A stretch of DNA of 64,000 nt from a virus. This document shows positions 4,683-64,000 of this stretch, one piece after another. The stretch's first letter is position 1. Each line of letters starts with the position of its first letter. Below the pieces are notes generated by a model that made no database searches, was not told the origin of the DNA, and was given only the letters and a program-made list of their open reading frames with translations. A program made the translations under genes and the position numbers. The stretch covers positions 1-64,000 of IMG/VR virus record IMGVR_UViG_3300023440_000004. One strand, 5' to 3'.

Positions 4683-4724
4683 GATTTATATCAGCTATAT
4701 GTTGTACCATCCCCACCTAGGGAC

Positions 4725-4754: not shown

Positions 4755-4765
4755 GCCTCGAAAAA

Positions 4766-4828: not shown

Positions 4829-4837
4829 AATTTAACG

Positions 4838-30940: not shown

Positions 30941-33900
30941 CCAGGATCGTAAGCGCCCTTTCGGGGTCAGGGACATCCTTCAGGCGAACCTGGCCCGAGA
31001 TATGATGAACTACGCTGACCCGGCCCGGCGGCGGGCTCTGAACCAGGAGCTTGCCGGGGATTCCGATTTTGCGCTCGGGGTGCGGGCCGGACTGGGTCGT
31101 ACCATCGCCGGGCTCCAGGCGCTGACAGGATTTACCGGCAGCGCGCAGGACACCCTGAGCACGCTCGAAACGCTGCCCACTCCACGGGTTACGGACTACC
31201 GTAAGATCAAGTCCCTGAGCGACGCGATCGACTATATCCAAGGGCTCGCCGGGTCATCCGCCCCGCAATCGCTAGCCACCTTGGGGGCGTTGGTTGCCAA
31301 CCCGGCGTTGGGACTCGGCGTTAGCGCGGCGATGTTTGGCGGCGAGAACGTCCTCGAACAGATGCAGCGTGGCGTCGCGCCAGAAGACCTCGACCGTGCC
31401 AGGGCGCTGGGCACCGGGGCGATCCAGGCGATCCCGGATGTCATCGGTGCTGGCGTCATCGCCAAGAGCTTGCGAACGATCGGTAGGGCGGCCCGTACCG
31501 GCGGGGTAGCCAAGACTATCGCTAAAGAAGCGGCCAAGGGTGCCGTCGGCGAGGGCCTTCCGGAGCTGTTCCAGGAAGAACTAACGATGCGCCAGGCTAG
31601 CGGACTGCCCGGCGCCCGTGAGCTAACCCCAGAAGAAGTCGCCCGACGGCGATTGGACGCGCTTATCGGCGGCGCTGCGCTTGGTACGGCGATGGGTGGC
31701 GCCGCCGGCGTCGGGCACGCCGCCGCGAACGCCCTTTCCGCCCGTGCTGTGCCGGAACAACCCATGTCGGCTGGCGCTGGCCCAGAAGGTGGCGTAGGCG
31801 GCCAGTCCGCTACCGAGACGGTCGTACCGCCAGAGCCCCCGCTCGGTGCCCAGGGGCCGGCAGCAGCCCCGACGCCGGATGTGCAGGTCCGTCCGATGGC
31901 CGAGGGACAGGCTCCGAAGGTCATGGGTATGACGTACCCCATGCCAAAGGACCTGAAGGTGGGTAAGCGAGAGGACTCGACGACGTTCGACGAGATCTTA
32001 GCTGGACGCCGCACGGCGACTACAAGGGCTACCCTTCCCAAAGGAGTGGAACCCGGACAGACCGTCGTGTTTACGTCAGGCGATGGTCGTAAGTCGGGAA
32101 CGTACGTCGTCCAGGATATCATCCCGTCTCCTCTGCGGCCCATGTTTCACAAGCCGCTCAAGGAGTGGACCGGCGAGGAGCGCAAACGGGCGGCGGAGTG
32201 GGCACGTCGTGAGCAATGGAATCCGTTTGTCATCAAAAAGAAAGCCGAGGCGGGTGACAAGGCGGCCCAAAAGCTTTGGGATCAGGTTGCCGGCCCCAGA
32301 GCCAAGCAGATTATTTTCGCCCCCATCGAAGCCACTCAGCCGGCCACTCAGCCGGCCGCTCAGCAACCTGCGGTAAAGTTCCGCTGGAAACAGCACGAAA
32401 CCCGCACGGTTCCCAGCGAGTTCATCTCGGCACCTTTGAGGAAGCGAGTCGCCCCTACTGGAGATAGCGCTCACGCCCTGTTCCTTGGAGCTGAGACGGG
32501 AGCGGTCACGGCCGCCGCTTCGAAGGTTAAACCGGGCGATACGCTGTACGAACGCACGTTACCGGACGGGCGGGTCGAAAGACTTGTCGTCGAGGACAAG
32601 GCCAAGAAGACCGCCTGGTTGACCGAACAGATGCTCAACGCCCGTACACCCAAGGAGCAGCGGGCGGCCGTCGTTGAGTTCTTGCGGACCGACAAGGGCG
32701 CCAAGGTGGCGAATCGATTGGGCTTGAATCCTAAGTTCGTCGCCAAAGTGCGGGCCGGAGACCGAACGGCGGTCGATCTAGCGGCCCGGATGTTCAACCG
32801 GCACACGGCCCTTTACAAGGTACGCCGTGAGATTGCCAGGCAGACCCAGCCTCAGACCCAGGCTCATCCTCAGACCCAGGCTCAGCCTCAGACCCAGGCT
32901 CAGCCTCAGACCCAGGCTCAGCCTCAGACCCAGGCTCAGCCTCAGACCCAGGCTCAGCCTCAGACCCAGGCTCAGCCTCAGACCCAGGCTCAGCCTCAGA
33001 CCCAGACAACCCAAGGCGTCGCACGTATCGTGGCGGCGGCCAAGCCTCCGTCACGATACGTTCAGAAGGAGCTGACCAAGGCGCGCGTCGCCACCAAGAT
33101 TCTCGCCCCTAGGATCGATCGAGAAGGGGCCGACCAGTCCTTCGCCGTTCGTCTCGCTAAGGCGGCCCCTGACGAGGCTCGGGTCGTTCCGGGATCGAAC
33201 GCCGATAATGTGGCGAAGGACGACGTGGTGTACATCTCCAATCCGGGGGCGTCTCGGTTCAGCGACAAGGCAAAGGCGCGGGAGTACGTCCAGAAGTACG
33301 TCGTGCCGACGGTCAAGCGTATCTTCGCCAAGGGCGCTTCGATCGTCATGGACTCTCCGGAGCACGCCAACCGCACACACAACCGGGAGACGGAAGGCAT
33401 GCTGTCGAACATTCTGGAGAACCCGGACGAAGCTATGCGGGTGTTCGGCGGCGAGGTGGTCCGTAAAGACCTTGGCAATGGGGCCGTCCAGTATTCCCTG
33501 CGCCCCCGTAGGCAGGCGCCAAAACCACCACAGCCCAAGCCACAGCCCAAGCCACAGCCCAAGCCACCAGCCAAGCCGCGGCCGCGAGCGCGTCGGCGGG
33601 TGACGAGCGCTGAAGCCGAAGCGTCCGGCGTTACCGTCGAGCGCATCGCTTCGGACGAGCCTTCGGCGCAGACGGAGCCGGAGCCCGCCAACAACCTGGT
33701 CGAAACGCTGTCGTCACGGGCTACCGAGTACTTGCGCGGTATCTCTAAAGCGGCGGTCGATCGTATCATCAACAGCGTTGTGTCCGTCGAACCGGACACC
33801 AAGCTGGAGTCGCTGATACGGCAAAAAACATTACCGATTTCGCGCGAGGTGGCGACGGCTCGCCTTCGTGCGTTAGCACAGCACCTTGCGGAAGCGGAGC

Positions 33901-36900
33901 TCGCCCCGGCCTTGAAACGGGTGGATAAGATCCTCAAGCGTCTTGGGGATGATGGGATCGAAAACCTGTTGAATCGAGTGCCCGATGTTCCCAAAACCCC
34001 AGCGGCTACGGAAGGCCCGTCGCTCGAAGACCTGGCCGGAGAACTCGGTGTATCGCAGAAGGCCCGCAACGTTCTGGACGCGCTGATCCATCAGTTGTCC
34101 TTCGACGTCGAACTATCCGACACCGCCGAATGGGACAAGGCCGTAAGGACCGTGGCCCAGATGGTCGAGTCCGCCAAGCGAGACACTCCGGAAGCGCCTT
34201 ACGTGCTCGGGGTTCTCACGGCGCTCGGGCGTAGCTCTAACGAGCAAAAGGTCAAGTTCCTGTCCGATGTCGTCACCAACGGTATGCGGACGGAAACGGC
34301 CGACCACAAGCAGGCTAGGTTGGCCGCTGCCCGTGTAGCGCGCACGTTAAGGGAGTTGGCCACCGATCCCAAGTTGCTGCGGGCGGCGATGCGTATTCGG
34401 ACGTCCGACCTGACGTTGAACGAGTCGCTGCTGGATTTGCTGCTGAAGTTCTACGACCCGAATACGGAACCGGACGAACTGCCGGTCGACGCCCGCGCCA
34501 GGGCGATTCGGGCCACGGCGGAGATCGTTGGCGGCCGTCGGAGTGGTAAGGGCTCGCTCGATTTGAACAGCAGTCTGCGCGATCGGCTGGAAAGCCTGGC
34601 GTCCAATCCGCGATCGGATATCGGACGGAAGGCCGCACAAGTACTCCGCGTCGTCCGCTCCATGGCCAACCAGACTTTGAGTCGGGAACTGCACCCACAG
34701 GTCGATCCCTTCGAGGAATCGCCGGCGGCCACGCGCCCCATGGAGTCCGACGAAATCGGTACTGGCGAACTGAAACGCTCGGACGGGCCGGAAGGTGCCA
34801 CCGTCCAGGTTCGCAAGATGTCCCGTGACGTACCGGACCCGGAGGCCGCACCATTGTTGACCCGGCTGGCCGAAGCCTTCCGATCTAGAAAGCCGAGCGA
34901 GGTGCTCCGGGTCGCCAGCAACGATGGCTTCGTCCGGCTGCTTCACGAGGCCATGCTCTCGACGGAAACCATCCTGGTACCCGATCCTGCCGGCACGAAG
35001 AAGGAGGGCGGTGTCGAGTTCACCCCCGTGCTTCGAGCGCCTATTCTCCAGCGCGTGTATCGGGGCAAGAACACCCAAGAGGCCGCCGCTACCCGTAAGC
35101 TGGTACGTGCGCTGCTTGCCAGGCATGGCGCACTGGTACCTGAAAACACCAAGTACGTCCCGTTCGGGGCGATCAAGGTGCCCGGTATCGGTATCGTCAA
35201 GCCGTGGAAACTCCATAACATGGCGAAGTTGGTGGGTGAGTTCACATCCACGGTAGACGACGATGCCGAATTGCGAGCGCTCCAGAGTCTCATGGTGCTG
35301 GACCGTGTGCTGGCATTCGCGTCCGAGCCCGTCACCATCGACACGATCGCCGAGTCCGCTCCGGAAACGGTGTTGGCGGACCAGAATTCTTTCGACACCT
35401 TGCGGGCCAAGACGCTCGGAGAGCTGTACCACGGCATCGGATCGGCCTTGCATTTGCGGGCCAGGGCAGCGCAATGGCGGCGATTCAAGTCGGACAAGAT
35501 CACGCTGTCGCGGTTGGATAAGGAAGTGTTGAAGCATAGCGGGTACACGCCAAGCGGTGAGGGTACCGCCACGACCCGCGAAGGTAAGGAAGTCAAGATC
35601 ACCCAGGCCCTGATGACCAAGGTTTATCAGCGGGCCTATCACGATGCCACCGCATCGTACAAGGACCGGAAAGGTCGCCCGTTCCGAGGCTCGCTGGCCA
35701 GCACGATGGCGGAGGCCATGGACAACTACGCTCGGGGGCTCTATCGAAATCAGATAGAGCTAATGAAAGCTCAGGCTGAGAAAGGCAATCTTCGAGCCAA
35801 AGCTATTCTGGACGAGTGGCGCGCTTGGTACCGTGGTGGCCGTGGCGATCATCCCGTGTTCGCTGCTCTGGCACGGGCCGGCGTAGACATGTCCCCGAGC
35901 CTCAAGACGTCTGACATCGTGGAAGCTGAAAAGCGCCTGTTCGAATTGAAGCAGGCCGGCGATTTGCCCCCCGGTGTGTGGGAGTCCTATCGCACCGCCT
36001 TGAAAGACTGGTCCGAGCAACTGGATCCGATCGAGCGGTCGATGGATTACAAGGGCAGCGACCGTCTGAAGCGGTATCTCGGATACCGTCGGGCAGCCAA
36101 GTATTGGCGGGAGAAGGACCTGGAGACTTTCGTCAGGAACGCCGAGACGATGATCGCCCTGGACGACCCGTTGCGCGGCGATATGCCCGGATCAGCCGAC
36201 CAGCTCCGCCAGGCGATCGGGTTCGGGTACGAAGACTCGGTGGTGTCCGAGAAAGACCCGCTGTATATCGATAGGACTCGGGAGCAGGGGATCGTCACCT
36301 ACGTCCGTGGCGAGGAGTTTTACGACGCCACCGCACGATCCTACGTCGAATCCGTCGCCAAAGAGACGATAGCCCGGTCCAAGCTGGTATATCGGGCCAA
36401 GCAACGGCTTAAAGCCATCCCGACGTACAAGGAGATCGACGAGCAGCTTAGCGCTGCCAAAGACGAGCTTTCCAAGTACGAATCTGTCAGGGACGCGATC
36501 AAGCGGGACCTTTCGAAGCTGAAATCCAAGGTCGGCCCCGAGGTCCGGCGGCTTCGAGACGAGTTGGGCACCGAATTGGAGCGGGTGCTTACTGCTATCG
36601 ACGCCATGCGGGATCGCGTGGCTGAACTGGAACGTACGCGCCGACAACGGGCGTTTTGGGAATCGCTATCCAAAGGCCGCAAGGCACATCCGGCGCTGCC
36701 GTCGAGGTCCCAGGTCGCCATCGCCAAGCGTATCCTCGAACAGGGGCGGGATATGAGCCTCAAAGACTTGGGCTTGCTGGCCAAGGAAATGGGCGTCAAG
36801 GCCATCACGCCAGACCCGGAAATGAGAATCATTCTCATTTCCACGGGCGACGCTGCTACGACGGCCGCTCGGGAAGCCCGCTTGGTGAAGCTTGGGTTCT

Positions 36901-39900
36901 CGGAGGTCATCCCGATTTCCCAGAACGATCAGGAGTTCTCCAACAAATTCCTCTCGGCCGTGCGTACGGAGAAGCCTGTCATCGTCGTCGACTTCGACAA
37001 AACGATGAAGCGTGAAGAACTCGCCGCCATCATCCGGGAGCAGCGACCAATCCGAGCGAAACTTGCGAAGATGGACCGGGCCGCCCTGCGAGCGGCGAGA
37101 AAACTAGCTGCGAGCCAGTTGGCGATGTCGACACTGGACAAGCTGGTCGGCAATAAGCCGATCGGCGTCGCTATTCTCGACGATTTGGTCAGCGGATGGC
37201 GAGACGGGCGTGTCGATGCCGAGGAGGTGGCCTATGCCGTTATCGCAGATGATACTAAGGCGGCCGCCAAGCTCCGGGCGCGCTGGGGCAAAGCGCTGCG
37301 TGGCAGTCAGGCCGGCGTCAGGCTCGCCCGCATCTTCGACGTTGCCGACCGAATCAGACAGGTTCGGGCGCAGGTGGCTGAAGACGGCGGTTCGATCGAG
37401 CAGATCCGCGCGGCGGTCGAACGGGCGGCCAGCGTCGAAATTCGGTTTGCTTCCCAGGAAGAAGCGGAGGTCGCCAGGTCCGACGTGGCCGGTATCGTCC
37501 AGGCGTTCATTACCCGCGTTTTTTCGGACGCCTGGTTGAAATCCATCAACGTCGAATTCGTTTGGCCGGACGTCACCAAGGTTGGTGACGAATGGACGTT
37601 CACGGATAGCGAACAGTCTCGCGTTCTGTTCGAGTCCACGTTGGGGTCCGGCAGCAACTTTCTGGCGTTCTCCGTCAACCAGGACGGTGGTGTCCGAATC
37701 CACCTGTCGGCGAGATTCGTCAATAAGGTACTGGCGAACGGGAAAAGGCTCACCGCCTCCACTGCATATGCGCTTGTGCACGAGTTGGCCCATGCGTATG
37801 TCGATCGGATGGCAGACGCGAACGAGCCAGTGCGCTGGTGGCTGGAGGAGTTGAGTAAAGGGACGTTCGACTGGATGCGCGGTGGCGGGTTGGTCGGTAC
37901 TAGCGCTTGGGAGTCCCGGCTGGCCGCCCGGAAGAAACCCGGACGGAAGAAGGTGAACCATTACCTGGCGTTCGACGAGATGGCCGCCGATGCCATCGCG
38001 GCTTACGTGTTCGGCGCGGATGCCGAGGCGATCCCGCAGTGGGTCCGTGGTATCGACAACCTTTTCCGCGAGGACGCCTTCGAGCTCCTCCATACACTGA
38101 CGCAGCGGCAGGAGGCCGATGTCGCCGACGCGGCTACGGAAGCAACCATGGAAGCGAGCGAGGATACGCAGGACGCTGGCGTCGATGTCGGCCCCATGCC
38201 GTCCGGTGACATGTCCTTCGCGGATTGGGTCGCGGTGACCCGTGCTGGACAGTGGTATACCACCAAGTTCGTCGTCGGCTTGGCCACCCACCTGACCCGC
38301 GTGGTCGACAAGGATACCGCCAAGCTGCTGATGAACAACGCCACGCAGCCTAGGGTACTGTTCCAGCTACGCAAGTTCGTACAGGAAACCTATGCCGAAG
38401 CGCCGGACGTTCGAGACGCCCTACTGGAAAAGCTGAACGACAGTCCCGAGACGGCTGCCGCGCTGTGGGTACAGGCGCAGTTGCTCGGCGCCGGGGTCAC
38501 GGCGGTGTCTCCGAAGGCGTCGGTTCTCTATACCGGCTTCCAGAGGATCGTCGAGTCGCTGGGACGAATCCCTTCGGACAAGGCTGGCGATATGGCCGTG
38601 GAACTCTTGGCCGACCAGCTGACCCGCACGGATATCGGCACGTCGCACTTCTCACCCATCCGCTTGGATACCAAGCTTCGGGATCGGGTCCTTCAGCGCA
38701 TCGCCGGACGGGTCGAGTCGCTGATCGGCCCCATGGCTAAGAAGGCTAGGCTCCATGCCTGGTTCTTTACCGTCGCTGAGCGCTTGCACGGGTACAACAA
38801 CCCGCACATCAACGCGTTGGCTAGGCTGTTCACGACCGACAACAAGACGGGGCGAATCGGGGTGTTCTCCGAAGTCTCCCGTTTGCGTGGGCAGTACTTG
38901 ACCGAATACGACAGGATCGTCCGTGGGCTTAGTGCCGACCAGAAGCGCCGGATCTCCGAGGTTCTGTTGCGTTCGCAGCTATATGGCGACGATATCCATC
39001 AGGCCGGGCTTAGCCAGAAGGAGCTCGCTGCGGCGATCCGTCTGCGGCAGTTCTCCAAGACGGTGTACGACAACGTGGCCGAGTCTGGCGTGAACGTCGG
39101 TGATCGCCCGGACAATTACTTCCCCCTGATGTTCGACCTCGAATGGTTGATGGCTCACCGCAGCGAGCTGCGGGATATCCTGCTGGCTCATGCTCGGAAA
39201 GACGTCGAGGCGATCCTGAAAGAAACCAATAAAGCCAGAGCCCGCGCGGGTCGGGACCCGGTCAAGTCCGTCGAGGAAATGGCCGACACTATCGTCAGCG
39301 GGTTGCTGGCGGCGCATGGTCATGCCGACGACGCCAGCTTCGATATGCTGCCGGACGCCTATTCGCCACGCTTCATGTTCGGGTCGCGTCGGCTCATCAA
39401 CAAGCTATTGCTTTCGAAACCGGAGGTCGCTCGATTCGTCGAGACCGGCCTGTCCCGAGACTTGGACGCCATCATGGTCGCGTTTTCGTCTCAGGCCGGG
39501 CGACGGGAAGGCTTCGCCCGGATGCTCGGCCCCCGTGCCGAAAAGGTGCAGGAGCTGCTCACCAAGGCCCTTGAGCTGGAACCCGACCTTCCGGTAGACG
39601 AAATCATGCGGCTGTTGGACAGCCTATACGGTATCGGTGGGGCGCGTACCAACGAGGCGCTGCATCGTCTCCTCGGCAAGGAAGCTCCCGCCGGCGAGAC
39701 GATCAATCCGAAGCTCAGCTTCGCTACCAACCTGGCGAACGTCTATATCTACACGACCACGCTGGCGCTGGCCGCGCTGACGTCTTTTTCCGACGTCAGC
39801 GGTGTGATGGCTAGAATGAATGGAGACATGGATATCGCCTTCCGGGCACTGATGGACGGTATTCGTGGGGCGTTCGGCCGAGAATCCGGGCAACGCGCCA

Positions 39901-40805
39901 AGGACTTCGCCGAGACACTGGGTATCGTACAGTCGTCGACGCTGATTGAATTGCTCAATCGTTTCGATGCCGATACGCCTCAGCAACTCCCGAACCGTTT
40001 GGCGGCATTGTGGTTCCGGCTGACCTTCATGACCAAATGGGACCAAATCTCCCGCATCATGGCGGCATCGGCCGCTGAGCAATTCTTGATGCAAATACAC
40101 AACGGCAAAATTGCGGACGAGATGGCGTCCAGGTATTTGCAGGAGCTCGGCCTGACCCGCGACGACCTGGCTGCCGTCGCATCGGCTAACGGTAAGAAGA
40201 TCGAGCTTCTCACCCTGGACGAGATCGCCCGGCTTCGGGATACCGATCCGGCTCGGGTCGAGTTGGACCAGCGGATCAAGCAGGCTCTGGTCGAGGTGGC
40301 CGACAGTATGGTCGTGCGGCCCAACCCGGCTAACCGTCCCAGTTGGGCGAACGACGAACACTTCCGGCTGTTCTTCGCCCTCAAGAGCTTCGCCTACGCT
40401 TTCTTCCACCAAGTCGTGGCTCGGGCGTGGTACGAAGCGAAAGAGGGCAACTCGGTGGCACTGTTCACGCTGGTCGCCGTATCCGTTCCGATGACGATCA
40501 TGATCACGGCGATTCAGGACCTATTGAAAGGTTACGACGACACTGGGTGGCGGTTCGCCAAGTACGGGGTGTTCGGGTACACCTTGGACGCCTTCGGTAA
40601 AGCGGGTATATTAGGTCCGGCCGCGTTCCTCAACGACCTTGGCTCGGGGTGGGAATATGGCCTGTCGTCCGTGCTCGGTCCGTGGGTCAATACGGTCACG
40701 AACATCTACGAGGCCATGTTTGCGGGCGATCCTGAAGATAGGCTATCGGCGCAGCTTAGCCTGCTTCCGGGGGCGACGTTGATCCGCCCATGGGTTCTGT
40801 ATTGA
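30927..40805 (+). CDS. giant multidomain (polyvalent-type) virion or ejection protein, 3292 aa
   Basis: Single uninterrupted ORF. Gly/Ala-rich hydrophobic N-terminal segments. ASCH-like stretch TTFDEILAGRRTATTR...GQTVVF. QPQTQA and PKPQ tandem repeats. Zincin motif VHELAHAY (HELAH at 37779-37793). Predicted TM segments lie in the last 350 aa or so. Confidence 0.8.
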   Translation: MANNNQDRKRPFGVRDILQANLARDMMNYADPARRRALNQELAGDSDFALGVRAGLGRTIAGLQALTGFTGSAQDTLSTLETLPTPRVTDYRKIKSLSDAIDYIQGLAGSSAPQSLATLGALVANPALGLGVSAAMFGGENVLEQMQRGVAPEDLDRARALGTGAIQAIPDVIGAGVIAKSLRTIGRAARTGGVAKTIAKEAAKGAVGEGLPELFQEELTMRQASGLPGARELTPEEVARRRLDALIGGAALGTAMGGAAGVGHAAANALSARAVPEQPMSAGAGPEGGVGGQSATETVVPPEPPLGAQGPAAAPTPDVQVRPMAEGQAPKVMGMTYPMPKDLKVGKREDSTTFDEILAGRRTATTRATLPKGVEPGQTVVFTSGDGRKSGTYVVQDIIPSPLRPMFHKPLKEWTGEERKRAAEWARREQWNPFVIKKKAEAGDKAAQKLWDQVAGPRAKQIIFAPIEATQPATQPAAQQPAVKFRWKQHETRTVPSEFISAPLRKRVAPTGDSAHALFLGAETGAVTAAASKVKPGDTLYERTLPDGRVERLVVEDKAKKTAWLTEQMLNARTPKEQRAAVVEFLRTDKGAKVANRLGLNPKFVAKVRAGDRTAVDLAARMFNRHTALYKVRREIARQTQPQTQAHPQTQAQPQTQAQPQTQAQPQTQAQPQTQAQPQTQAQPQTQAQPQTQTTQGVARIVAAAKPPSRYVQKELTKARVATKILAPRIDREGADQSFAVRLAKAAPDEARVVPGSNADNVAKDDVVYISNPGASRFSDKAKAREYVQKYVVPTVKRIFAKGASIVMDSPEHANRTHNRETEGMLSNILENPDEAMRVFGGEVVRKDLGNGAVQYSLRPRRQAPKPPQPKPQPKPQPKPPAKPRPRARRRVTSAEAEASGVTVERIASDEPSAQTEPEPANNLVETLSSRATEYLRGISKAAVDRIINSVVSVEPDTKLESLIRQKTLPISREVATARLRALAQHLAEAELAPALKRVDKILKRLGDDGIENLLNRVPDVPKTPAATEGPSLEDLAGELGVSQKARNVLDALIHQLSFDVELSDTAEWDKAVRTVAQMVESAKRDTPEAPYVLGVLTALGRSSNEQKVKFLSDVVTNGMRTETADHKQARLAAARVARTLRELATDPKLLRAAMRIRTSDLTLNESLLDLLLKFYDPNTEPDELPVDARARAIRATAEIVGGRRSGKGSLDLNSSLRDRLESLASNPRSDIGRKAAQVLRVVRSMANQTLSRELHPQVDPFEESPAATRPMESDEIGTGELKRSDGPEGATVQVRKMSRDVPDPEAAPLLTRLAEAFRSRKPSEVLRVASNDGFVRLLHEAMLSTETILVPDPAGTKKEGGVEFTPVLRAPILQRVYRGKNTQEAAATRKLVRALLARHGALVPENTKYVPFGAIKVPGIGIVKPWKLHNMAKLVGEFTSTVDDDAELRALQSLMVLDRVLAFASEPVTIDTIAESAPETVLADQNSFDTLRAKTLGELYHGIGSALHLRARAAQWRRFKSDKITLSRLDKEVLKHSGYTPSGEGTATTREGKEVKITQALMTKVYQRAYHDATASYKDRKGRPFRGSLASTMAEAMDNYARGLYRNQIELMKAQAEKGNLRAKAILDEWRAWYRGGRGDHPVFAALARAGVDMSPSLKTSDIVEAEKRLFELKQAGDLPPGVWESYRTALKDWSEQLDPIERSMDYKGSDRLKRYLGYRRAAKYWREKDLETFVRNAETMIALDDPLRGDMPGSADQLRQAIGFGYEDSVVSEKDPLYIDRTREQGIVTYVRGEEFYDATARSYVESVAKETIARSKLVYRAKQRLKAIPTYKEIDEQLSAAKDELSKYESVRDAIKRDLSKLKSKVGPEVRRLRDELGTELERVLTAIDAMRDRVAELERTRRQRAFWESLSKGRKAHPALPSRSQVAIAKRILEQGRDMSLKDLGLLAKEMGVKAITPDPEMRIILISTGDAATTAAREARLVKLGFSEVIPISQNDQEFSNKFLSAVRTEKPVIVVDFDKTMKREELAAIIREQRPIRAKLAKMDRAALRAARKLAASQLAMSTLDKLVGNKPIGVAILDDLVSGWRDGRVDAEEVAYAVIADDTKAAAKLRARWGKALRGSQAGVRLARIFDVADRIRQVRAQVAEDGGSIEQIRAAVERAASVEIRFASQEEAEVARSDVAGIVQAFITRVFSDAWLKSINVEFVWPDVTKVGDEWTFTDSEQSRVLFESTLGSGSNFLAFSVNQDGGVRIHLSARFVNKVLANGKRLTASTAYALVHELAHAYVDRMADANEPVRWWLEELSKGTFDWMRGGGLVGTSAWESRLAARKKPGRKKVNHYLAFDEMAADAIAAYVFGADAEAIPQWVRGIDNLFREDAFELLHTLTQRQEADVADAATEATMEASEDTQDAGVDVGPMPSGDMSFADWVAVTRAGQWYTTKFVVGLATHLTRVVDKDTAKLLMNNATQPRVLFQLRKFVQETYAEAPDVRDALLEKLNDSPETAAALWVQAQLLGAGVTAVSPKASVLYTGFQRIVESLGRIPSDKAGDMAVELLADQLTRTDIGTSHFSPIRLDTKLRDRVLQRIAGRVESLIGPMAKKARLHAWFFTVAERLHGYNNPHINALARLFTTDNKTGRIGVFSEVSRLRGQYLTEYDRIVRGLSADQKRRISEVLLRSQLYGDDIHQAGLSQKELAAAIRLRQFSKTVYDNVAESGVNVGDRPDNYFPLMFDLEWLMAHRSELRDILLAHARKDVEAILKETNKARARAGRDPVKSVEEMADTIVSGLLAAHGHADDASFDMLPDAYSPRFMFGSRRLINKLLLSKPEVARFVETGLSRDLDAIMVAFSSQAGRREGFARMLGPRAEKVQELLTKALELEPDLPVDEIMRLLDSLYGIGGARTNEALHRLLGKEAPAGETINPKLSFATNLANVYIYTTTLALAALTSFSDVSGVMARMNGDMDIAFRALMDGIRGAFGRESGQRAKDFAETLGIVQSSTLIELLNRFDADTPQQLPNRLAALWFRLTFMTKWDQISRIMAASAAEQFLMQIHNGKIADEMASRYLQELGLTRDDLAAVASANGKKIELLTLDEIARLRDTDPARVELDQRIKQALVEVADSMVVRPNPANRPSWANDEHFRLFFALKSFAYAFFHQVVARAWYEAKEGNSVALFTLVAVSVPMTIMITAIQDLLKGYDDTGWRFAKYGVFGYTLDAFGKAGILGPAAFLNDLGSGWEYGLSSVLGPWVNTVTNIYEAMFAGDPEDRLSAQLSLLPGATLIRPWVLY
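32841..33008 (+). repeat. 18-bp tandem repeat (CAGACCCAGGCTCAGCCT) inside the giant gene
   Basis: Seven perfect copies from 32871 to 32996, plus degenerate flanking copies. It encodes (QPQTQA)n. Confidence 0.9.
33528..33575 (+). repeat. 12-bp tandem repeat (CCACAGCCCAAG), 3 perfect copies plus 1 variant
   Basis: Encodes PQPKPQPKPQPKPPAKP inside the giant gene. Confidence 0.85.
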
Positions 40806-56732: not shown

Positions 56733-57014
56733 ATGAACGTCATTCGAATCGATATCGAGAAGCTCCGGGGTATTCTGAGACAGATCCACCAGGCTGGACG
56801 GCCGGTTCCGGCCCATCAGATCGCGGCCAAGCTGGACCTATCCCCAGGCACGGTCCGGAATATCCTCGATACAGCCGAGCGGACGCTCAAAGTAAAAGTG
56901 GCCCGACACCCAAGGCAGGGTATCGGGCCGGAGATGGAGCTTGGCCATCTCAATCCGTCGTTTCTCGGTGAGGAAGCGCCTCAGAACGGCATGTCGTCGT
57001 CGGAGACTTCCTGA
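56733..57014 (+). CDS. winged-helix/HTH regulator (93 aa), the only rightward gene inside the leftward block
   Basis: G/C-rich third codon positions. VPAHQIAAKLDLSPGTVRNILD is an HTH pattern. The SD-like GAGGG sits very close to the ATG. Its 3' end overlaps the convergent gene 56981..57658 by 34 nt. Confidence 0.5.
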   Translation: MNVIRIDIEKLRGILRQIHQAGRPVPAHQIAAKLDLSPGTVRNILDTAERTLKVKVARHPRQGIGPEMELGHLNPSFLGEEAPQNGMSSSETS

Positions 57015-57690: not shown

Positions 57691-57891
57691 TTACAACATA
57701 TCATCCTTGACTGGAACGGTCAATACGAACCTGTCCTTGAAAATCATAGTTTCATCGACGTCGCCGGGCATTCGCCGCTCGATGTCGGTAGTCGGCTTTC
57801 CACGGAACGTCAACCGGAAGCTCAGGGTATCGTAAGCGCCACGGCGAGGATGGCGTATCGCCCACAACCCCCCTACTCTACGGAAGCGCAC
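57691..57891 (-). CDS. hypothetical protein (66 aa)
   Basis: GTG start with GAGGGG 5 nt upstream. It fills the gap between neighbouring genes. The call is modest. Confidence 0.4.
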   Translation of the reverse strand: MRFRRVGGLWAIRHPRRGAYDTLSFRLTFRGKPTTDIERRMPGDVDETMIFKDRFVLTVPVKDDML

Positions 57892-58741: not shown

Positions 58742-58957
58742 TCACTCTTCAGGAGAATCGACGGTGACCCCCATTTCTTGTAACGCTGCGACGATCCGAT
58801 AGATGGTATCGTAGCGGGGAGAAGTACTCCGCTTTCCACTACGGATGAGCCGGAGTGCTTGCTCGGAGAGGAAGGTTCGATCCGCCAGTTTAGACAGACG
58901 AACCTGTTTCATCGCCTGGCGGACGACGTTCAATTCTGGAAGATGGTATCGATGCAT
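58742..58957 (-). CDS. XRE/Cro-type HTH regulator (71 aa)
   Basis: AAGGAGG RBS. VRLSKLADRTFLSEQALRLIRSGKRSTSPRYDTIYRI is an HTH pattern. Confidence 0.65.
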   Translation of the reverse strand: MHRYHLPELNVVRQAMKQVRLSKLADRTFLSEQALRLIRSGKRSTSPRYDTIYRIVAALQEMGVTVDSPEE

Positions 58958-59108
58958 GGCACCTCCTTAGCGGGTTCGAGAAAGAATTCCCAGAGCCAGG
59001 CGCGACAAGGTCACGCCGGCTTCGACATCCCGTCTTCCACGAAACCGACTTACCCGGTTGGTGTTGTGGAAGAGGAGTCGGTATTGTAAACGAAACAGTT
59101 GTACCGAA

Positions 59109-59333
59109 TCAAATCTTTCGTTCTTCGGGTCTCGCCTCAGTTTCACGGCTGATGTCCAACATGAAATGGTTGAAAGATTCGTACAGGGACACCTGGTGGT
59201 GAAAAATAGTTTCCCCGACTACGTGTTTCCTCGCCCGAAACTGCTTCTGGCCTGTGGTAAAAGACAGAACGGAGCCCCTCGGTCGGTGAGGGGCTTCGAT
59301 ACTGAAACCGGAGTTGACACGTCGTAACTTCAT
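59109..59333 (-). CDS. small MKL-start protein A (74 aa)
   Basis: ATGA overlap with the upstream gene. MKLRRVNSGF... Confidence 0.5.
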   Translation of the reverse strand: MKLRRVNSGFSIEAPHRPRGSVLSFTTGQKQFRARKHVVGETIFHHQVSLYESFNHFMLDISRETEARPEERKI

Positions 59334-59848
59334 ATCGTCGCCGCTATCTCCTGGATCACATAATCATCACAGACGGGAGCCCCAGTCGTGGTCCGGCCCC
59401 AGACCCACCAGGAATCACCGGCAGGGCAAGGGAACACCGTCTCGTCATATCGAGCCAGCTTCATCGCGAACCATTCTGTGACGGCCCAGTACTCGAAGAT
59501 CTCTTGAGTGGACAGTTCGTCCCAGTCCAAATTAAGAATCTGGGAAACGATGTATTCAATTTCTTTCGGGTTCTCACTGGCCAGATAATGCAGCTCCTCC
59601 AAAATCGCCTCAGCGTCCCATTCCAGGCGCCCGTCGGGCTCGGAATCTGGGTCTATGCCCAAATATTCCATAAGCTCTTCCCGATACCGTTCCAGTTCAT
59701 GGAGTGGAATGTCCTCGACGATGTCCTCCAGGGGGCGCTCGGCGTACAGCGGGATTTCCTCTTCGAACTCCGACATCTGCCGGAGTGCGTCCATGGTGCA
59801 AGACACATTGCAGAGAATTTCCCGATCGACAAGGTCTTGTGGTTTCAT
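59330..59848 (-). CDS. strongly acidic hypothetical protein (172 aa)
   Basis: GGAGG RBS. About a quarter of residues are D/E and there are few K/R (hand count). Confidence 0.75.
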   Translation of the reverse strand: MKPQDLVDREILCNVSCTMDALRQMSEFEEEIPLYAERPLEDIVEDIPLHELERYREELMEYLGIDPDSEPDGRLEWDAEAILEELHYLASENPKEIEYIVSQILNLDWDELSTQEIFEYWAVTEWFAMKLARYDETVFPCPAGDSWWVWGRTTTGAPVCDDYVIQEIAATI

Positions 59849-59868
59849 CAGGTTACCTCCGTTGGTGG

Positions 59869-60087
59869 TTATGCAGGGATCGTTCCAGGATCGCTCATGA
59901 CTGATAACGAATTGAGACGTAGCTCCAACCGAGAACAGTCTATCCCTATCAGAGGGTTGGAGGTCAATACGTATGGCTCTGGACTATCCAAACTACACAG
60001 AAACACCTTTCGTCTGGTTCGCTCCGTCGTATACCAACGATCCAACGAATGAGCGATTCCCGTAGATTTATATAGCCTTAGTTTCAT
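59869..60087 (-). CDS. small MKL-start protein B (72 aa), paralog of C
   Basis: MKLRLYKSTGIAHSLDR...NSLSVMSDP compared with C: MKLKIYNLAGIAQSVNR...NSLTFVRDP. ATGA overlap. Confidence 0.6.
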   Translation of the reverse strand: MKLRLYKSTGIAHSLDRWYTTERTRRKVFLCSLDSPEPYVLTSNPLIGIDCSRLELRLNSLSVMSDPGTIPA

Positions 60088-60278
60088 GGATCTCTCACGA
60101 AGGTCAGTGAATTTCGACGCAAAACCATAACATTACGCGCAAAACCTGCCGCAGGGTTCGAGATATCGAGTCGAATAACCGGGTCGGGCAGGGACGCTAT
60201 TTGTATAGTGCCTACCGTCGAGTCACACCGATTCACCGATTGAGCGATTCCTGCGAGGTTGTATATCTTCAGCTTCAT
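60084..60278 (-). CDS. small MKL-start protein C (64 aa), paralog of B
   Basis: Internal ATG (residue 88) of track ORF 60084..60539. ATGA overlaps at both ends. Confidence 0.6.
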   Translation of the reverse strand: MKLKIYNLAGIAQSVNRCDSTVGTIQIASLPDPVIRLDISNPAAGFARNVMVLRRNSLTFVRDP

Positions 60279-60544
60279 GGCGCACTCCCAAGCTCCAGAA
60301 ACAATACAGGAACGTCTCGGACTCTGACCTCGACGCCATAGTCGGCAACGTCTTCGAGCTCCGTCTCCGACACGGCGCCCTTGCGTAAGTAGCCCTGGTC
60401 GATCAGCCAGATGAGCAACCGTTTGTCGTCCTCCCAAACGGCAGAGTCGATGACGGTCTCCGTTATTCTGGTCTTGTCGTTCCAGGTCCATTGACCGTCG
60501 TACAGTTGGGCGTCGATGGCCCAGATTGTGATTGGGCATTTCAT
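60275..60544 (-). CDS. hypothetical protein (89 aa)
   Basis: AAAGGAGG RBS. MKCPITIWAIDAQLYDGQWTWNDK... Confidence 0.7.
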   Translation of the reverse strand: MKCPITIWAIDAQLYDGQWTWNDKTRITETVIDSAVWEDDKRLLIWLIDQGYLRKGAVSETELEDVADYGVEVRVRDVPVLFLELGSAP

Positions 60545-60556
60545 GGGTTACCTCCT

Positions 60557-60763
60557 TTAGTAGAATTTGACCAAATAGAAAGCCCCATCAGAAACAGCCA
60601 CTTTATTCTGGGCTTGGTCAACAGGTATTCTGTATTGAAAAACTAATGGGGTCCCAGCAATGCCGGATCTAAAACTCAATATATCGATGGTTTTTACCTT
60701 GCGCTTCTCCAACTTCGATGTCGCTAAACGATGTCCTGGTTCAGTCAGCAACGTGAGTTTCAT
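60557..60763 (-). CDS. small MKL-start protein D (68 aa)
   Basis: Lies in a lower-GC segment, with a weak RBS and a weaker codon signal. Confidence 0.4.
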   Translation of the reverse strand: MKLTLLTEPGHRLATSKLEKRKVKTIDILSFRSGIAGTPLVFQYRIPVDQAQNKVAVSDGAFYLVKFY

Positions 60764-60947
60764 GAACTTTCCAGACCCAAAGTTCGTTTCGATTCAAATA
60801 GAAATTGACGAATCCGTAGAAGTCCCGAAATCCGGCCTTGGCTCGGGGAGCCCGCACCACTCTGACGCCTACTGACATGCTTGGCGGGATCTCCTTTTCG
60901 GTAAAGCTGAAGATCGGATTGTTGTTATTCTCAAACCGCACTTTCAT
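60741..60947 (-). CDS. small MKV-start protein E (68 aa), paralog of G
   Basis: SVGVRVVRAPRAKAGFRDFYGFVNFYLNRNELWVWK compared with G: SVGLTVGLHPAAKRGKRFLNGYVMAYLSKKEIWLWRK. Confidence 0.55.
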   Translation of the reverse strand: MKVRFENNNNPIFSFTEKEIPPSMSVGVRVVRAPRAKAGFRDFYGFVNFYLNRNELWVWKVHETHVAD

Positions 60948-61146
60948 GACGCTCCTCTTGGAACAAATGGATCGAGTCCCTCGAAAGACGGACGGCGTCG
61001 AACGCCAACCCTTTCGTTGGGGTATACGAACAAGCTACAGTGTTTTCTACTTCGAGATACAATTTTCTGGATCCTTGTTTCGCCCTAAGAATTCGAGGTG
61101 TCACGGCTTCCTGTGGCACTGCGTCTTCCAGTAAAAGAAGTCTCAT
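60931..61146 (-). CDS. small MRL-start protein F (71 aa)
   Basis: Internal ATG (residue 8) of the track ORF, giving an ATGA overlap with the stop of G. Confidence 0.45.
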   Translation of the reverse strand: MRLLLLEDAVPQEAVTPRILRAKQGSRKLYLEVENTVACSYTPTKGLAFDAVRLSRDSIHLFQEERHESAV

Positions 61147-61334
61147 TTTGCCTTTCTCCACAACCATATTTCTTTCTTGGACAAGTAAGCCATAACGTAA
61201 CCGTTCAGGAAACGCTTTCCCCTCTTCGCGGCCGGGTGTAAACCTACCGTCAACCCGACCGACACGCAGTCAGGTACCGGCGGGTCTTGACCGACCGCAT
61301 AGGTGGGGTAGTTATCGACTCTAACCAGCTTCAT
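61143..61334 (-). CDS. small MKL-start protein G (63 aa), paralog of E
   Basis: Internal ATG (residue 26) of the track ORF. ATGA overlap with the stop of the VWA gene. GGAGG upstream. Confidence 0.6.
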   Translation of the reverse strand: MKLVRVDNYPTYAVGQDPPVPDCVSVGLTVGLHPAAKRGKRFLNGYVMAYLSKKEIWLWRKAK

Positions 61335-62452
61335 AGCGCCACCACCTCCACTCCTTTGGGAGCGTTCCTGGCCTGGCTCGGGTCGTCCACAGCTACGACG
61401 ACAGGGCACGACGCCAGCCCGTAAGCTTCTTCGGCATCGTGGGTCTCCAAATCGGTGATGTGGACGATACAGTCTGGCTTTAACGTGCGGGCCAGCTTGA
61501 ACGCCGGTACGAAGGCCGTCCCACCGCCTGGTGGCAAGTCTTTGCCCGGCTCCAACAGGACGGCATCGACATCGTGGACGATCGTCTCGGCCTCGAAGCG
61601 ATCTCTACAGGCGTCGACCAGCGCTTGGGAAACGTCAAGCCGCTCGGCACGCGAGCCCGATACATCGACGATGACCAGGAGCCTCGGCCTGGGGAGATAG
61701 GCCCCGCCGCGCAGGTTCGTGTTCGTGCCCAGACGGCGGGGTCGGACCCAGGTCCTGGAGAACTGCCGTCGGCCGTCGATACCGTCGAGGCGGGACAGAA
61801 TGGCGTCGATCTTCGCCAACGGTTCCGGGCTGAACTCGACCGACCGGGTCTTGCGGTGGTGCAGCTTGCCGATGTCCCCCACGGCTCGGGAGACGTCCGG
61901 ATGTTTCTGCAAAGCCCTTCGGGCCCTGACGAGCGTCTCGGCGTGCCGCTTCTTCAACTCGTCCGGATCGCCGGTTCCGGGGTGAAGTTCGTCATGCGCC
62001 TGTCCGGGGCCTGAGGAAGCCGAGGAACGTTTCTTGAGCGTCTCGAAGATCATCGGGGCCGGAGGGACGTGGTCGGCAGGCAGCTCGGACGCGAACGACA
62101 GAAGCGTTTCGTAGACTATCGGTCGGGCCTTCTCGCCTTGGAGTTGCCGAACTACGCTGGTGAGTGGAGGCACCAGCTCCGAGCGGTTGATTCTGGCGTC
62201 ACACGCCACGTTCCAGAGCCTCGGGTCCTCCTTGGCCTGCTTCGCCAGAAGGTCACCATGAAGCACGTGAGCGAACTCATGGAGGAGCACCGCCTTGTGT
62301 TCTTCGTTGGATATATCGTTCAGCTGTTTAGGAATATGGATCGTGTAGCCTTTCCGATCGTCGAGAGTGACAGAGGGTGCCGGTGTATCGGTCCAGCGGA
62401 TCTTGATACCGCTGTCTTTGATGATGCAGTACAGGTCGCTAAGGGTGGTCAT
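61331..62452 (-). CDS. VWA-domain protein with an N-terminal putative zinc metallopeptidase domain (DUF2201-type)
   Basis: 373 aa. LLHEFAHVLHGD...WNVACDARIN matches the HExxH...NxAxDxxIN pattern of DUF2201_N. C-terminal MIDAS motif VIVDVSGS. AAGGAGG RBS. Confidence 0.75.
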   Translation of the reverse strand: MTTLSDLYCIIKDSGIKIRWTDTPAPSVTLDDRKGYTIHIPKQLNDISNEEHKAVLLHEFAHVLHGDLLAKQAKEDPRLWNVACDARINRSELVPPLTSVVRQLQGEKARPIVYETLLSFASELPADHVPPAPMIFETLKKRSSASSGPGQAHDELHPGTGDPDELKKRHAETLVRARRALQKHPDVSRAVGDIGKLHHRKTRSVEFSPEPLAKIDAILSRLDGIDGRRQFSRTWVRPRRLGTNTNLRGGAYLPRPRLLVIVDVSGSRAERLDVSQALVDACRDRFEAETIVHDVDAVLLEPGKDLPPGGGTAFVPAFKLARTLKPDCIVHITDLETHDAEEAYGLASCPVVVAVDDPSQARNAPKGVEVVAL

Positions 62453-62471
62453 CGGGTTACCTCCTTCGTTT

Positions 62472-63515
62472 TCACAGCCCCTTCTCTTGTAAACGCTTCA
62501 CCACCGGTTCCATGGCGTCATACAGATCGTCAGGCTCGACGCCCGGCAGGAACTCCACCTCGGGGTCTCCGGTACGATTGTACTGCTCTTCAAGAGCGTC
62601 GAAGAGTCCTGAGAGGAACCGGGAGCACAGGTCGGCGTTTCGCGTCTCCCACAACCGCTCGGTGAAGCGAGCGAAGGTCTCCGCCGCCTTGGGTCCGGAC
62701 AGATGCTCGGGGATGACGGCGGTAAGGGCGATGACCTCCTCCAGCTCGATGTCGTCCGGGTCGATGGTGCCCTCTCCCAACGCCTGGCAGATGGCTTTCG
62801 AGTCGAGGGTCTGATGACTGTCCAACGCTTCCAGGAATGGCTCCACCAGCGGCTTGGGCAGGACGCCGCCGGCGATCGCCTGACGGGTATCCTGAGGAAC
62901 CTCTTCAGGCAAGTGCGTGAGCAGGCGGTAGAGCAGCGTCACCTGACGAGGCGAAGGCTCCTCCAGGACCGGGAGCTTGGGAGACGGACCTGCCGGGAGG
63001 AAGGACAAGTCCATGCCGATCTGCTGCTGGACGTAGTTCCAGTCATAAGCCACCGGCAGGAACACGCACCGAGCGGCGATGGCCCGCCCAGTTTCGTCGG
63101 CGAGGAACTGGGCGGGCGGCACCGGCTGCATGGCCAGGATGAGCACGGTGTCGGGGTGCAGGGCGACGTTCCCCACCTTGAGCTCCCACAGGAGGGTCAG
63201 TACGGCGCCCATGACGTCCCGTCGGGCCTTGTCGAACTCGTCCAGGAACAGGACGTGAGGCTCCTTGGCGAGCCGGGTGGCCCACTCTGGGGCGGGCCAA
63301 GCGGTGCGTTTGGCGGTCACGTGCGGGATACCGGAGATCTCTTCCGGCATCATGTGGGCCAGGAGCATGGTATGCACCGGCAGGTTCAGCGCCTCGGCCA
63401 CCTGGTGCACCCGTGCGGTCTTGCCCGCACCCGTGGGGCCGACCAGACAGGGGCGGAGAGCGTGGGGGCCTTTGGTGAGATTGGCCAGGTGGGTGAGGGT
63501 GTCGGTGATGTTCAT
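62472..63515 (-). CDS. MoxR-like AAA+ ATPase (AAA_5 type)
   Basis: 347 aa. Walker A GPTGAGKT, Walker B VLFLDEFD. Paired with the VWA gene 19 nt downstream. Confidence 0.8.
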   Translation of the reverse strand: MNITDTLTHLANLTKGPHALRPCLVGPTGAGKTARVHQVAEALNLPVHTMLLAHMMPEEISGIPHVTAKRTAWPAPEWATRLAKEPHVLFLDEFDKARRDVMGAVLTLLWELKVGNVALHPDTVLILAMQPVPPAQFLADETGRAIAARCVFLPVAYDWNYVQQQIGMDLSFLPAGPSPKLPVLEEPSPRQVTLLYRLLTHLPEEVPQDTRQAIAGGVLPKPLVEPFLEALDSHQTLDSKAICQALGEGTIDPDDIELEEVIALTAVIPEHLSGPKAAETFARFTERLWETRNADLCSRFLSGLFDALEEQYNRTGDPEVEFLPGVEPDDLYDAMEPVVKRLQEKGL

Positions 63516-63727
63516 GTGCTACCTCCTTTCAGGTCGTCGGGATCTTCGAGCGCCAAATAGCGACGCCGTATGGTGACTTTGGCGAAAACTCGCTGACTCC
63601 TGGCGCTCGCGATGGTCGGTGAGACTATTCTAAATACAGTCACACGCCCCGAGACGGGGTGTCGTAGCGGCTCCGCCTCGAAGCGTTGGTATTGAGGGTC
63701 GGTCGGGTTCTGGAAATACAGTTTCAT
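63512..63727 (-). CDS. small MKL-start protein H (71 aa)
   Basis: MKLYFQNPTDP... The stop overlaps the MoxR ATG (ATGA). Confidence 0.55.
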   Translation of the reverse strand: MKLYFQNPTDPQYQRFEAEPLRHPVSGRVTVFRIVSPTIASARSQRVFAKVTIRRRYLALEDPDDLKGGST

Positions 63728-63909
63728 TTCTTTCTACGCAGGACCATACAGTCTCGCGCCAGGATCGTACACTTTCGATAGTTGATGTTCCTTTCGCCCA
63801 GCGCTACCGAAACTGGTAACACATCGATGATGATTTCGTGACGGCATGAATCGGTCGTCGGGAGCCAGGTCTCATACCAGCGGTATTCCGGTGTGTATTT
63901 GAGTCGCAT
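63724..63909 (-). CDS. small MRL-start protein I (61 aa)
   Basis: MRLKYTPEYRWYETW... The stop overlaps the ATG of H. Confidence 0.5.
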   Translation of the reverse strand: MRLKYTPEYRWYETWLPTTDSCRHEIIIDVLPVSVALGERNINYRKCTILARDCMVLRRKK

Positions 63910-63910
63910 C

Positions 63911-64000
63911 TCAATCTCCGTTCGTCAGCCATTCCTTCGCCGGGACGAAGCGCCACTGGCCACCGGCCTGACGGTAGGCGATGTACTCGTCTTCCGTCAT
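63911..64000 (-). CDS. C-terminal part of a gene running off the right window edge
   Basis: The open frame reads ...MTEDEYIAYRQAGGQWRFVPAKEWLTNGD*. The ATG at 63998-64000 may be internal. Confidence 0.4.
   Translation of the reverse strand: MTEDEYIAYRQAGGQWRFVPAKEWLTNGD

Follow-up and report, generated by a model that had tools for sequence, protein, structure and literature searches.

What are the small genes that crowd around a MoxR-type ATPase gene and a VWA-metallopeptidase gene in a phage genome, and do their products work with that pair? The question is raised by a 64,000-nucleotide (nt) stretch of viral DNA (IMG/VR virus record IMGVR_UViG_3300023440_000004, positions 1 to 64,000), referred to here as the window; all coordinates are positions in it unless another locus is named. 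Matches to a major head protein, a DNA polymerase, a helicase and an exonuclease identify the window as phage DNA, and searches with its VWA protein, MoxR, small proteins and DNA found no close relatives of this phage. A sequence-only reading had singled out nine short open reading frames (ORFs) around the MoxR/VWA pair, here called u1 to u9, to which we add two, u10 and u11. Comparison of related loci shows, at the level of sequence, that the association of such arrays with one MoxR/VWA-metallopeptidase clade is old and conserved. The small proteins may be clients, substrates or adaptors of this machine, a proposal that we favor tentatively and weigh below against its rivals.

The pair and the small ORFs are listed here in the order in which they are read, with lengths in amino acids (aa).

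63724..63909, minus strand: u1, 61-aa basic protein beginning MRLKYTPEYRW; its ORF frame is the best of six in a Markov model, and its stop overlaps the u2 start (ATGA)
63512..63727, minus strand: u2, 71-aa basic protein; its stop overlaps the MoxR start
62472..63515, minus strand: MoxR-type AAA+ ATPase, 347 aa (Pfam AAA_5, 2.9e-14; phrog_1297, 3e-19)
61331..62452, minus strand: VWA protein with an N-terminal zincin-like metallopeptidase domain, 373 aa (phrog_1314, 3.8e-17)
61143..61334, minus strand: u3, 63-aa protein, paralog of u5, ATGA-coupled to the VWA stop
60931..61146, minus strand: u4, 71-aa protein, ATGA-coupled to u3; a JGI gene call on the variant contig L003
60741..60947, minus strand: u5, 68-aa protein, paralog of u3
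60557..60763, minus strand: u6, 68-aa protein
60084..60278, minus strand: u7, 64-aa protein, paralog of u8, ATGA-coupled to the larger gene g89
59869..60087, minus strand: u8, 72-aa protein, paralog of u7; a called protein in the JGI collection, with a weak compositional coding score
59109..59333, minus strand: u9, 74-aa basic protein, ATGA-coupled to the larger gene g172; weak paralog of u11
57691..57891, minus strand: u11, 66-aa basic protein with a GTG start (MRFRRVGGLWAI...), in the next transcription unit, between g140 and g225

The remaining ORF, u10 (58967-59146, minus strand), is a doubtful candidate and is taken up with the gene that it precedes.

How are these small genes tied to the pair? 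Listing the ORFs and reading the minus strand directly confirmed that all nine ORFs lie where the sequence-only reading had placed them, encode 61-74 aa and start with MKL, MKV or MRL. The seven ATGA stop/start overlaps that it had reported (63724/27, 63512/15, 61331/34, 61143/46, 60275/78, 60084/87 and 59330/33) could each be read in the sequence. Longer overlaps join u4 to u5 (17 nt) and u5 to u6 (23 nt). None of the small ORFs has a full GGAGGT hexamer at the Shine-Dalgarno position, whereas every larger gene nearby does: GGAGGT stands 6-9 nt upstream of MoxR, VWA, g89, g172 and the gene for a helix-turn-helix (HTH) protein described later. The GGAGGT of MoxR itself sits in the final codons of u2. 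As read from these translation signals, the layout shows most small ORFs to be expressed through stop/start (ATGA) coupling to the preceding gene, with their synthesis tied to that of MoxR and the VWA-metallopeptidase. The minus strand of the window begins with ATGA, and the chain of coupled ORFs may run past the window edge. A gene upstream of u1 (63912-64000, minus strand) stops one base before the u1 start (TGAgATG).

The small ORFs also have a common character. All 11 start with M[KR][LIVFM], as against 2 of the 39 other genes in the window (Fisher p = 2e-9), and they are basic, with a median isoelectric point (pI) of 10.0. Their GC content is 0.42-0.56, compared with 0.53-0.65 in the larger genes, and their GC bias at third codon positions is weaker as well. 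Judged by their sequences, size, an N-terminal M-[KR]-hydrophobic-basic motif, basic charge and position are what hold the units together.

Is this arrangement a peculiarity of one phage? Relatives of the window MoxR, with 35-50% identity to it and 32-54% among themselves, were found in 12 distinct contexts. One of these (L165) is cut off on the VWA side and uninformative. Chains of small ORFs accompany the genes in 10 of the 11 informative contexts: the window, L005/6, L007, L008/9, L012, L013, L014, L015, L128 and L166. The chained ORFs encode 46-96 residues (median 66 aa), number from 3 to at least 26 per locus, and stand before, between and after the MoxR and VWA genes. The loci other than the window are arranged as follows.

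L005/6: MoxR followed by VWA and a chain of six ORFs (60-69 aa)
L007: about 15 units in the 3.3 kb that follow the pair, a region with almost no gene calls
L008/9: MoxR and VWA genes 3.8 kb apart, with the chain of small ORFs beside VWA and overlapping the VWA start
L012: a single unit between the two large genes and ten more after them, all with MKL starts and ATGA coupling
L013: one unit before, one between and about six after
L014: one unit before and about ten after, with MKV or MKI starts
L015: two units between MoxR and VWA
L128: three units between and at least 23 after
L166: eight units before

In four lineages (L012, L013, L015 and L128), units thus lie between the two large genes. 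The start motif recurs in these loci: 73 of 104 array ORFs begin with M[KR][LIVFM], against the same 2 of 39 controls (p = 4e-13), and R and K are overrepresented at positions 4-5. The wobble bases of codons 2 and 3 vary among the array ORFs, so the constraint on their starts acts at the protein level. Alignments make motifs of families visible inside arrays, and change within an array can be seen in L006, where the first ~120 nt of two paralogs (2304-2504 and 2698-2898) are near-identical, with 4 differences, and the last ~80 nt are unrelated. Such mosaic paralogs point to partial gene conversion or cassette shuffling within the array, as far as sequence can tell.

More distant pairs are found on three temperate-type contigs (L132, L133 and L138), where two or three ATGA-chained small ORFs with Gly/Tyr repeats follow the pair. 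These ORFs (L132 8803-9622, L133 8821-9398 and L138 8808-9145) have MKYP[KN]G starts and Gly/Tyr/Asp, and also His-Gly, repeats. The pairs beside them are shorter, with a MoxR of ~260 aa and a VWA protein of 351 aa, and in L132 similar ORFs occur ~2 kb upstream of MoxR. Attempts to enlarge the set brought little: a DNA search of phage records and a GTDB genome scan found no further relatives, single-protein scans of IMG/VR gave one distant match each, a metagenome scan was swamped by generic Walker-motif patterns, a custom DNA pattern (QP..ETG[RK]A..AR) gave four matches, at chance level, and the aligned VWA proteins proved too diverged to seed a scan. Literature searches, in turn, found no paper on such arrays, in agreement with the earlier statement that no described system of this composition was known. 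They turned up no account of the conserved partnership with MoxR/VWA either; the large gene pair itself is already known from phages (Iyer et al. 2021, on jumbo phages; PMC7824862).

Are the small ORFs protein-coding at all? They could instead be structured RNAs in repeated copies, or spurious ORFs that resemble one another as DNA. Translations resembling 'GIAQS' and a 5'/3' complementary stretch present in both u7 and u8 (GGAATCGCTCA / TGAGCGATCC) had suggested tRNA or structured-RNA repeats. A three-periodic Markov model trained on the long genes of the window gave near-zero or negative coding scores for u7, u8 and u10, and the L007 array was almost wholly skipped by the gene caller. RNA searches did not bear this out: ARAGORN found no tRNA gene, Rfam gave no match at the gathering score and only chance-level matches at E up to 10, and RNAfold comparison with shuffled sequences showed no excess folding (z from -2.55 to +0.5, with only u3 below -1). 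Evidence at the codon level settles the question in favor of proteins. Each of the nine frames is open in only 1.6-12% of dinucleotide shuffles, for a joint chance of ~1e-12 (summed log10 p = -14 for the eleven units tested). The similarity between paralogs is specific to the ORF frame, with scores of 94 for u3/u5 against 31 and 27 in the other frames, and of 90 for u7/u8 against 26 and 50. Nucleotide differences are most frequent at third codon positions (29/23/43 over the three positions for u3/u5 and 32/20/39 for u7/u8), and many identical residues are encoded by different codons (15 of 23 in u3/u5 and 14 of 25 in u7/u8).

A variant contig adds a closer comparison. L003 (JGI 3300023442, 2063 nt) is 98.6% identical to window positions 59546-61603. 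Between the two, u3 has ten synonymous codon changes and a single two-residue change, FL to SP, corresponding to a nonsynonymous rate (dN) of 0.014, a synonymous rate (dS) of 0.308 and a dN/dS of ~0.05. There are four conservative replacements and no synonymous changes in u5; u4, u6, g89, u7 and u8 are identical. Paralogs within arrays have dN/dS values of 0.24-0.38 where measurable (0.33 for u7/u8). All 30 differences between the window and L003 fall within 60851-61555, and 26 of them lie within 350 nt at 61207-61555. That segment, the end of VWA plus u3, is ~7% diverged and the other ~1.3 kb is identical, a mosaic that suggests recent recombination. In u1-u6, u9 and u11 the Markov model favored the ORF frame over the other five, at absolute scores close to zero, as for the HTH gene; u7, u8 and u10 scored negative. 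We judge the small ORFs to be protein-coding because of the frame-specific similarity, the excess of third-position changes and the synonymous pattern in u3. On these sequence criteria they are genuine genes of atypical composition, and the non-coding reading, which is largely refuted, strikes us as very improbable.

How are the small proteins related to each other? Smith-Waterman alignments with shuffled controls upheld the two paralog pairs that had been recognized by eye, u3/u5 (z = 19.7) and u7/u8 (z = 16.4), and brought out a third, u9/u11 (z = 5.3). The supposed kinship of u2 (63512) to the u3/u5 pair did not hold up, with z = 2.9 to u5 and nothing to u3, and all remaining pairs of units have z no higher than 3.1. 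A single nine-member family, which the sequence-only reading had offered as a hypothesis, finds no support in sequence: hhalign, phmmer and jackhmmer give nothing beyond the three pairs, an outcome that this reading itself had counted as a refutation. With hhalign, pair profiles against single sequences gave probabilities below 1% throughout, and jackhmmer searches started from the small ORFs did not extend past the pairs. One member lies outside the range first described: u11, whose ORF frame is the best of six, with a positive score. It resembles an ORF of the L007 array (9006-9215; MLPMRRFGGLWIVR). Resemblances to distant arrays are also seen in u9 (to L008 6459-6635, SGxSIxAPHxP..SFT; not significant after multiple testing) and in u1 (to the MK[VI]xYxPxxxW pattern of the L014 array; not significant). 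The comparisons within the window show, by sequence, small proteins that arose by tandem duplication and diverge very fast.

Searches for outside homologs found none. A u3+u5 profile retrieved only itself from 1.84 billion representative proteins, as did a word-indexed search with u7+u8 in a 5.8-billion collection. Pfam and PHROGs have no match for the window units or for 59 array members from seven loci, and PDB profile searches with three array alignments gave no match. A likeness of two L007 units to cold-shock domains (DFGFV) was seen by eye only and set aside, having no Pfam backing. The small proteins are probably beta-rich, to go by pattern and structure models. Their alternating hydrophobic pattern gives a beta/alpha moment ratio of 1.14, compared with 0.6-1.12 in eight controls, and AlphaFold2 returned all-beta models for u5 and u7, at low confidence and from two-sequence alignments (predicted local distance difference test scores, pLDDT, of 50 and 58). 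Foldseek searches of these two models against PDB and BFVD found nothing below E = 0.6.

Is the MoxR/VWA machine itself intact? The MoxR protein scores 53.7 bits against AAA_5 (cut-off 22), and its Walker A (GxTGxGKT; G26, T28, G29, G31, K32 and T33) and Walker B (DExDK; D92 and E93) motifs are invariant in 8 homologs. It falls short of the bpMoxR model, with 18 bits against a cut-off of 27. The VWA protein passes the cut-off for DUF2201_N (PF13203; 24.4 bits against 23.2) and stays below that for DUF2201 (PF09967; 22.5 bits against 26.4). Its HExxH..G motif (H58, E59 and H62) and its MIDAS residues, DxSGS (D263, S265, G266 and S267) and TD (T333 and D334), are also invariant in 8 homologs. 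From these invariant catalytic, MIDAS and Walker residues, the machine looks active. A search of 5.8 billion clusters for relatives of the VWA protein gave one match, at 30% identity. Both phrog_1314 and the record of gp29 of Stenotrophomonas phage Piffle (L010 6993-8147) carry the label 'HNH endonuclease', and the note of the latter record lists metallopeptidase and VWA-like domains; the label is probably a propagated misannotation.

How, then, might the array and the pair work together? By the general logic proposed for such systems, vWA domains take hold of a client peptide, which MoxR then releases; in bacteria, some MoxR-vWA systems come with a zincin peptidase and a small substrate protein that diverges rapidly (PMC7159879). 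It is because of this logic that we lean toward the small proteins being clients, substrates or adaptors of the MoxR/VWA-protease that act early in infection, a proposal by analogy that is possible and that we hold tentatively. The sequence-only reading had mentioned adaptors or substrates of the ATPase/VWA machine as an alternative, and this alternative gains support from a layout kept in 10 of 11 informative contexts and from the between-gene units of four lineages. Under this model, the small proteins would work with MoxR/VWA as a diversified set. The MIDAS site or the peptidase domain of the VWA protein would capture them, perhaps via the N-terminal M-K/R-hydrophobic-basic strand, whose conservation makes it the obvious candidate for a handle. 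The MoxR ring would then remodel or release the captured proteins, and the metallopeptidase may cleave either them or host proteins brought along. All of this would take place early in infection, in the service of host takeover or counter-defence.

A more ambitious form of the same idea is a three-part phage system that has not yet been described, in which a MoxR ring and a vWA-metallopeptidase act on, or are directed by, a tandemly duplicated, hypervariable library of beta-proteins of ~65 residues that have the N-terminal M-K/R-hydrophobic-basic handle in common. The library would consist of interchangeable adaptors, decoys or pro-proteins with which the phage remodels or degrades changing host proteins, including defence proteins, and the whole would parallel, on the viral side, the diversifying MoxR-vWA conflict systems found in bacteria. 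We regard this extended form as rather unlikely. Its interest is that variable adaptors or decoys would give a virus a new way to diversify its attack on host proteins. MoxR/vWA-metallopeptidase pairs are widespread in N4-like, jumbo and many metagenomic phages, no client of theirs is known, and the co-translated, fast-evolving array is the first concrete candidate for what they act on or with.

Several observations weigh against a working link between the small proteins and the pair. One informative context, L164, has the pair and no array in view; the pair there (3936-5285) is followed by a 111-aa ORF and then by an AAA+ protease fragment that is Lon-like by translation only. N4-like phages carry distant homologs of the pair without arrays. 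Conversely, some units stand away from the pair (u7-u9 and u11 in the window, 556 and 1248 in L013, and 1224 in L014), and proximity may just reflect a shared early region. Homology between the arrays of different phages was not significant after multiple testing by phmmer, jackhmmer, hhalign, locus hidden Markov models (HMMs) or Smith-Waterman; per-locus HMMs set against decoys that keep the first three residues, and Smith-Waterman comparisons with MKL stripped, gave weak enrichment only. A C-terminal W-[RK] motif is common to L007, L012, u3 and u5, and the GGAG that serves the following unit as ribosome-binding site (TGGAGG) falls on the same stretch. We down-weighted it as a family signature because of this overlap, and it may reflect translation signals rather than common descent. 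The structure models of u5 and u7 are of low confidence (pLDDT 50 and 58). Finally, when IMG/VR was scanned for patterns of three ATGAARCT starts at intervals of 188-218 nt, eleven genuine chained arrays came up, all of unrelated families and none with MoxR/VWA in the flanks examined. On these sequences, MKL starts with ATGA chaining are a wider phage habit and not unique to the MoxR/VWA module. A different array family seen in IMG/VR (L111 10784-12698, L053, L098 and L037) has up to nine ATGA-chained ORFs of ~65 aa with MKLKSV or MKLVxx starts and with xQVW/DQV-type or SLW repeats, again with no MoxR/VWA in the flank examined.

The main rival takes these points at face value. The small ORFs would be stand-alone early host-takeover or anti-defence ORFans, an acr-like island in a plastic region closed by an HTH regulator, and the MoxR/VWA pair would merely reside there and lend its translation. 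The lack of any homolog in 1.84 billion representatives or the 5.8-billion word-indexed collection, a GC content below that of the neighbors, fast divergence and the mosaic paralogs of L006 all fit such an island, as do members away from the pair and unrelated MKL-start chained arrays with no MoxR/VWA nearby. An HTH gene and a terminator close the unit, and in the window, L005/6 and L012 the module is found at the end of a contig, which is where linear genomes have their early regions. What this account has to explain is adjacency. Chance co-residence would be hard to maintain because adjacency survives at 32-54% MoxR identity in 10 of 11 informative contexts, with insertions between the two genes and, in L008, co-migration of the chain with the VWA gene. 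In addition, the HTH protein scores above threshold for no known family, Aca or other, a promoter-like site of its own precedes its gene, and no member resembles a known anti-defence protein. We consider independent early genes a serious possibility, although one short of probable. Even then, the arrays would be a rich and unexplored source of orphan early proteins: ten loci hold at least 100, with no match to Pfam, PHROGs or PDB among those searched, and gene callers partly miss them, as in nearly the whole 15-unit array of L007.

The clients could also be structural. A role in virion assembly and processing has been proposed for phage MoxR and vWA-metallopeptidase, citing the tail of Acidianus two-tailed virus (ATV) as precedent (PMC7824862). 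Extended to the arrays, the beta-rich proteins, together with the distant Gly/Tyr-repeat proteins, would build a filament, shell or aggregate chaperoned by MoxR/VWA. The alternating hydrophobic pattern (moment ratio 1.14 against 0.6-1.12 in the eight controls), the all-beta AlphaFold2 models and the aggregation-prone Gly/Tyr-repeat ORFs after distant pairs agree with this, beside the published proposal and the ATV precedent. The position of the module does not: it belongs to the replication/early arm, and the structural genes are on the other strand. Structural subunits do not usually show such extreme sequence turnover or copy numbers that range from 3 to at least 26, and no structural-protein family is matched. 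Assembly clients thus appear improbable to us.

How does the locus compare with known systems? The ATPase and DUF2201 pair of N4-like Schitoviridae (gp28/gp29 of Piffle) is homologous to the window pair, with 22-27% identity in the ATPase by tblastn. The two window genes keep the order seen in these pairs and in those of jumbo-phage group 2.2 (PMC7824862), and their HExxH, MIDAS and Walker motifs are intact. Unlike the window, the described phage pairs have not been reported with small-ORF arrays, and Piffle and Pantoea phage G19 have none after the VWA gene. The bacterial MoxR-vWA ternary conflict systems, with their linked peptide-processing module of a zincin metallopeptidase and a small FxSxx-COOH-type precursor (PMC7159879), share with the window a MoxR-vWA core, a zincin-like peptidase and adjacent fast-diverging small proteins. 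The logic proposed for them also agrees, from capture of a peptide by vWA through its release by MoxR to processing of a small protein by the peptidase. In the window, by contrast, the peptidase and the vWA domain form one protein, small genes stand in long tandem rows where the bacterial module has one, and the context is viral and early rather than one of cellular defence. Pfam and PHROGs revealed no VMAP, iSTAND, FtsH or beta-propeller third component among the neighboring proteins of the window and no radical-SAM gene in the operon, and the C-termini of u1-u11 have no FxSxx, RxD or acidic motif.

The locus also resembles acr-aca operons, in which tightly packed, small, unrelated-looking orphans precede an HTH gene and a terminator. 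It departs from them in that its small genes form arrays of paralogs that have an N-terminal motif in common and alternate with a conserved ATPase/protease pair. Its HTH protein, moreover, falls in no recognized Aca family, and the HTH gene seems to be served by a separate promoter and operator-like repeat. Phages also have hyperplastic early regions, such as the modular cassettes in which T4-type phages carry small early genes and the host-takeover module of SPO1. Like the window, they hold many small early orphans with duplication and shuffling, which the L006 mosaics fit. The window units, by comparison, have a uniform size, an M-[KR]-hydrophobic-basic start and ATGA chaining, and their partnership with one conserved gene pair stays fixed however deeply the phages have diverged.

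The rest of the operon consists of two acidic proteins, the HTH protein and the signals around it.

60275..60544, minus strand: g89, 89-aa acidic protein (pI 4.3) with its own GGAGGT Shine-Dalgarno sequence, outside the small-ORF class
59330..59848, minus strand: g172, 172-aa strongly acidic protein (pI 4.1; 42 D+E of 172) with its own Shine-Dalgarno sequence
59112-59083, minus strand: sigma-70-like promoter-like site upstream of the HTH gene, by consensus match only
59033-59049 / 59057-59073, minus strand: 17-bp inverted repeat upstream of the HTH gene
58742..58957, minus strand: HTH protein, 71 aa, last gene of the unit, with a GGAGGT Shine-Dalgarno sequence
58612-58591, minus strand: terminator-like GC-rich hairpin and T run after the HTH gene

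Neither g89 nor g172 has a Pfam or PHROG match. The composition of g172 would suit a DNA mimic, and both acidic proteins interleave with the basic small proteins. The HTH protein has weak Pfam HTH matches, all below their cut-offs, and belongs to no recognized Aca or other family. The promoter-like site and the inverted repeat stand directly upstream of the HTH gene and not of the small genes. Here lies u10, a GTG-start ORF (MKLRRD...) that fills the gap between u9 and the HTH gene. It is doubtful because its coding score is negative and it overlaps both the inverted repeat and the promoter-like site; from its sequence, the region is probably regulatory DNA of the HTH gene rather than a tenth unit. 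The sequence-only reading had the operon ending at the HTH gene, and we likewise end the unit there because of the terminator-like hairpin at 58612-58591.

Three further regions of the window deserve mention. A 3292-aa ORF (30927-40805, plus strand) matches only phrog_30152, a virion structural protein, through its C-terminal 700 residues, and no RNA-polymerase match was seen in it. We considered an N4-like identity for the phage and regard it as unproven, this ORF matching the 'virion structural protein' PHROG only. Between the divergent gene arms, ~2 kb (1100-3189) without convincing genes contain five or six copies of a palindromic element (GATTGTTCGCTATCGGTTAACAATC), of which those at 2549 and 2770 are 100% identical, along with other direct and inverted repeats. 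This region may be a promoter, operator or origin region. Elsewhere, a winged-HTH-like ORF of 93 aa (56733-57014, plus strand) converges on the end of the minus-strand gene g225, and a strong terminator-like hairpin (56900-56929, minus strand) lies inside it.

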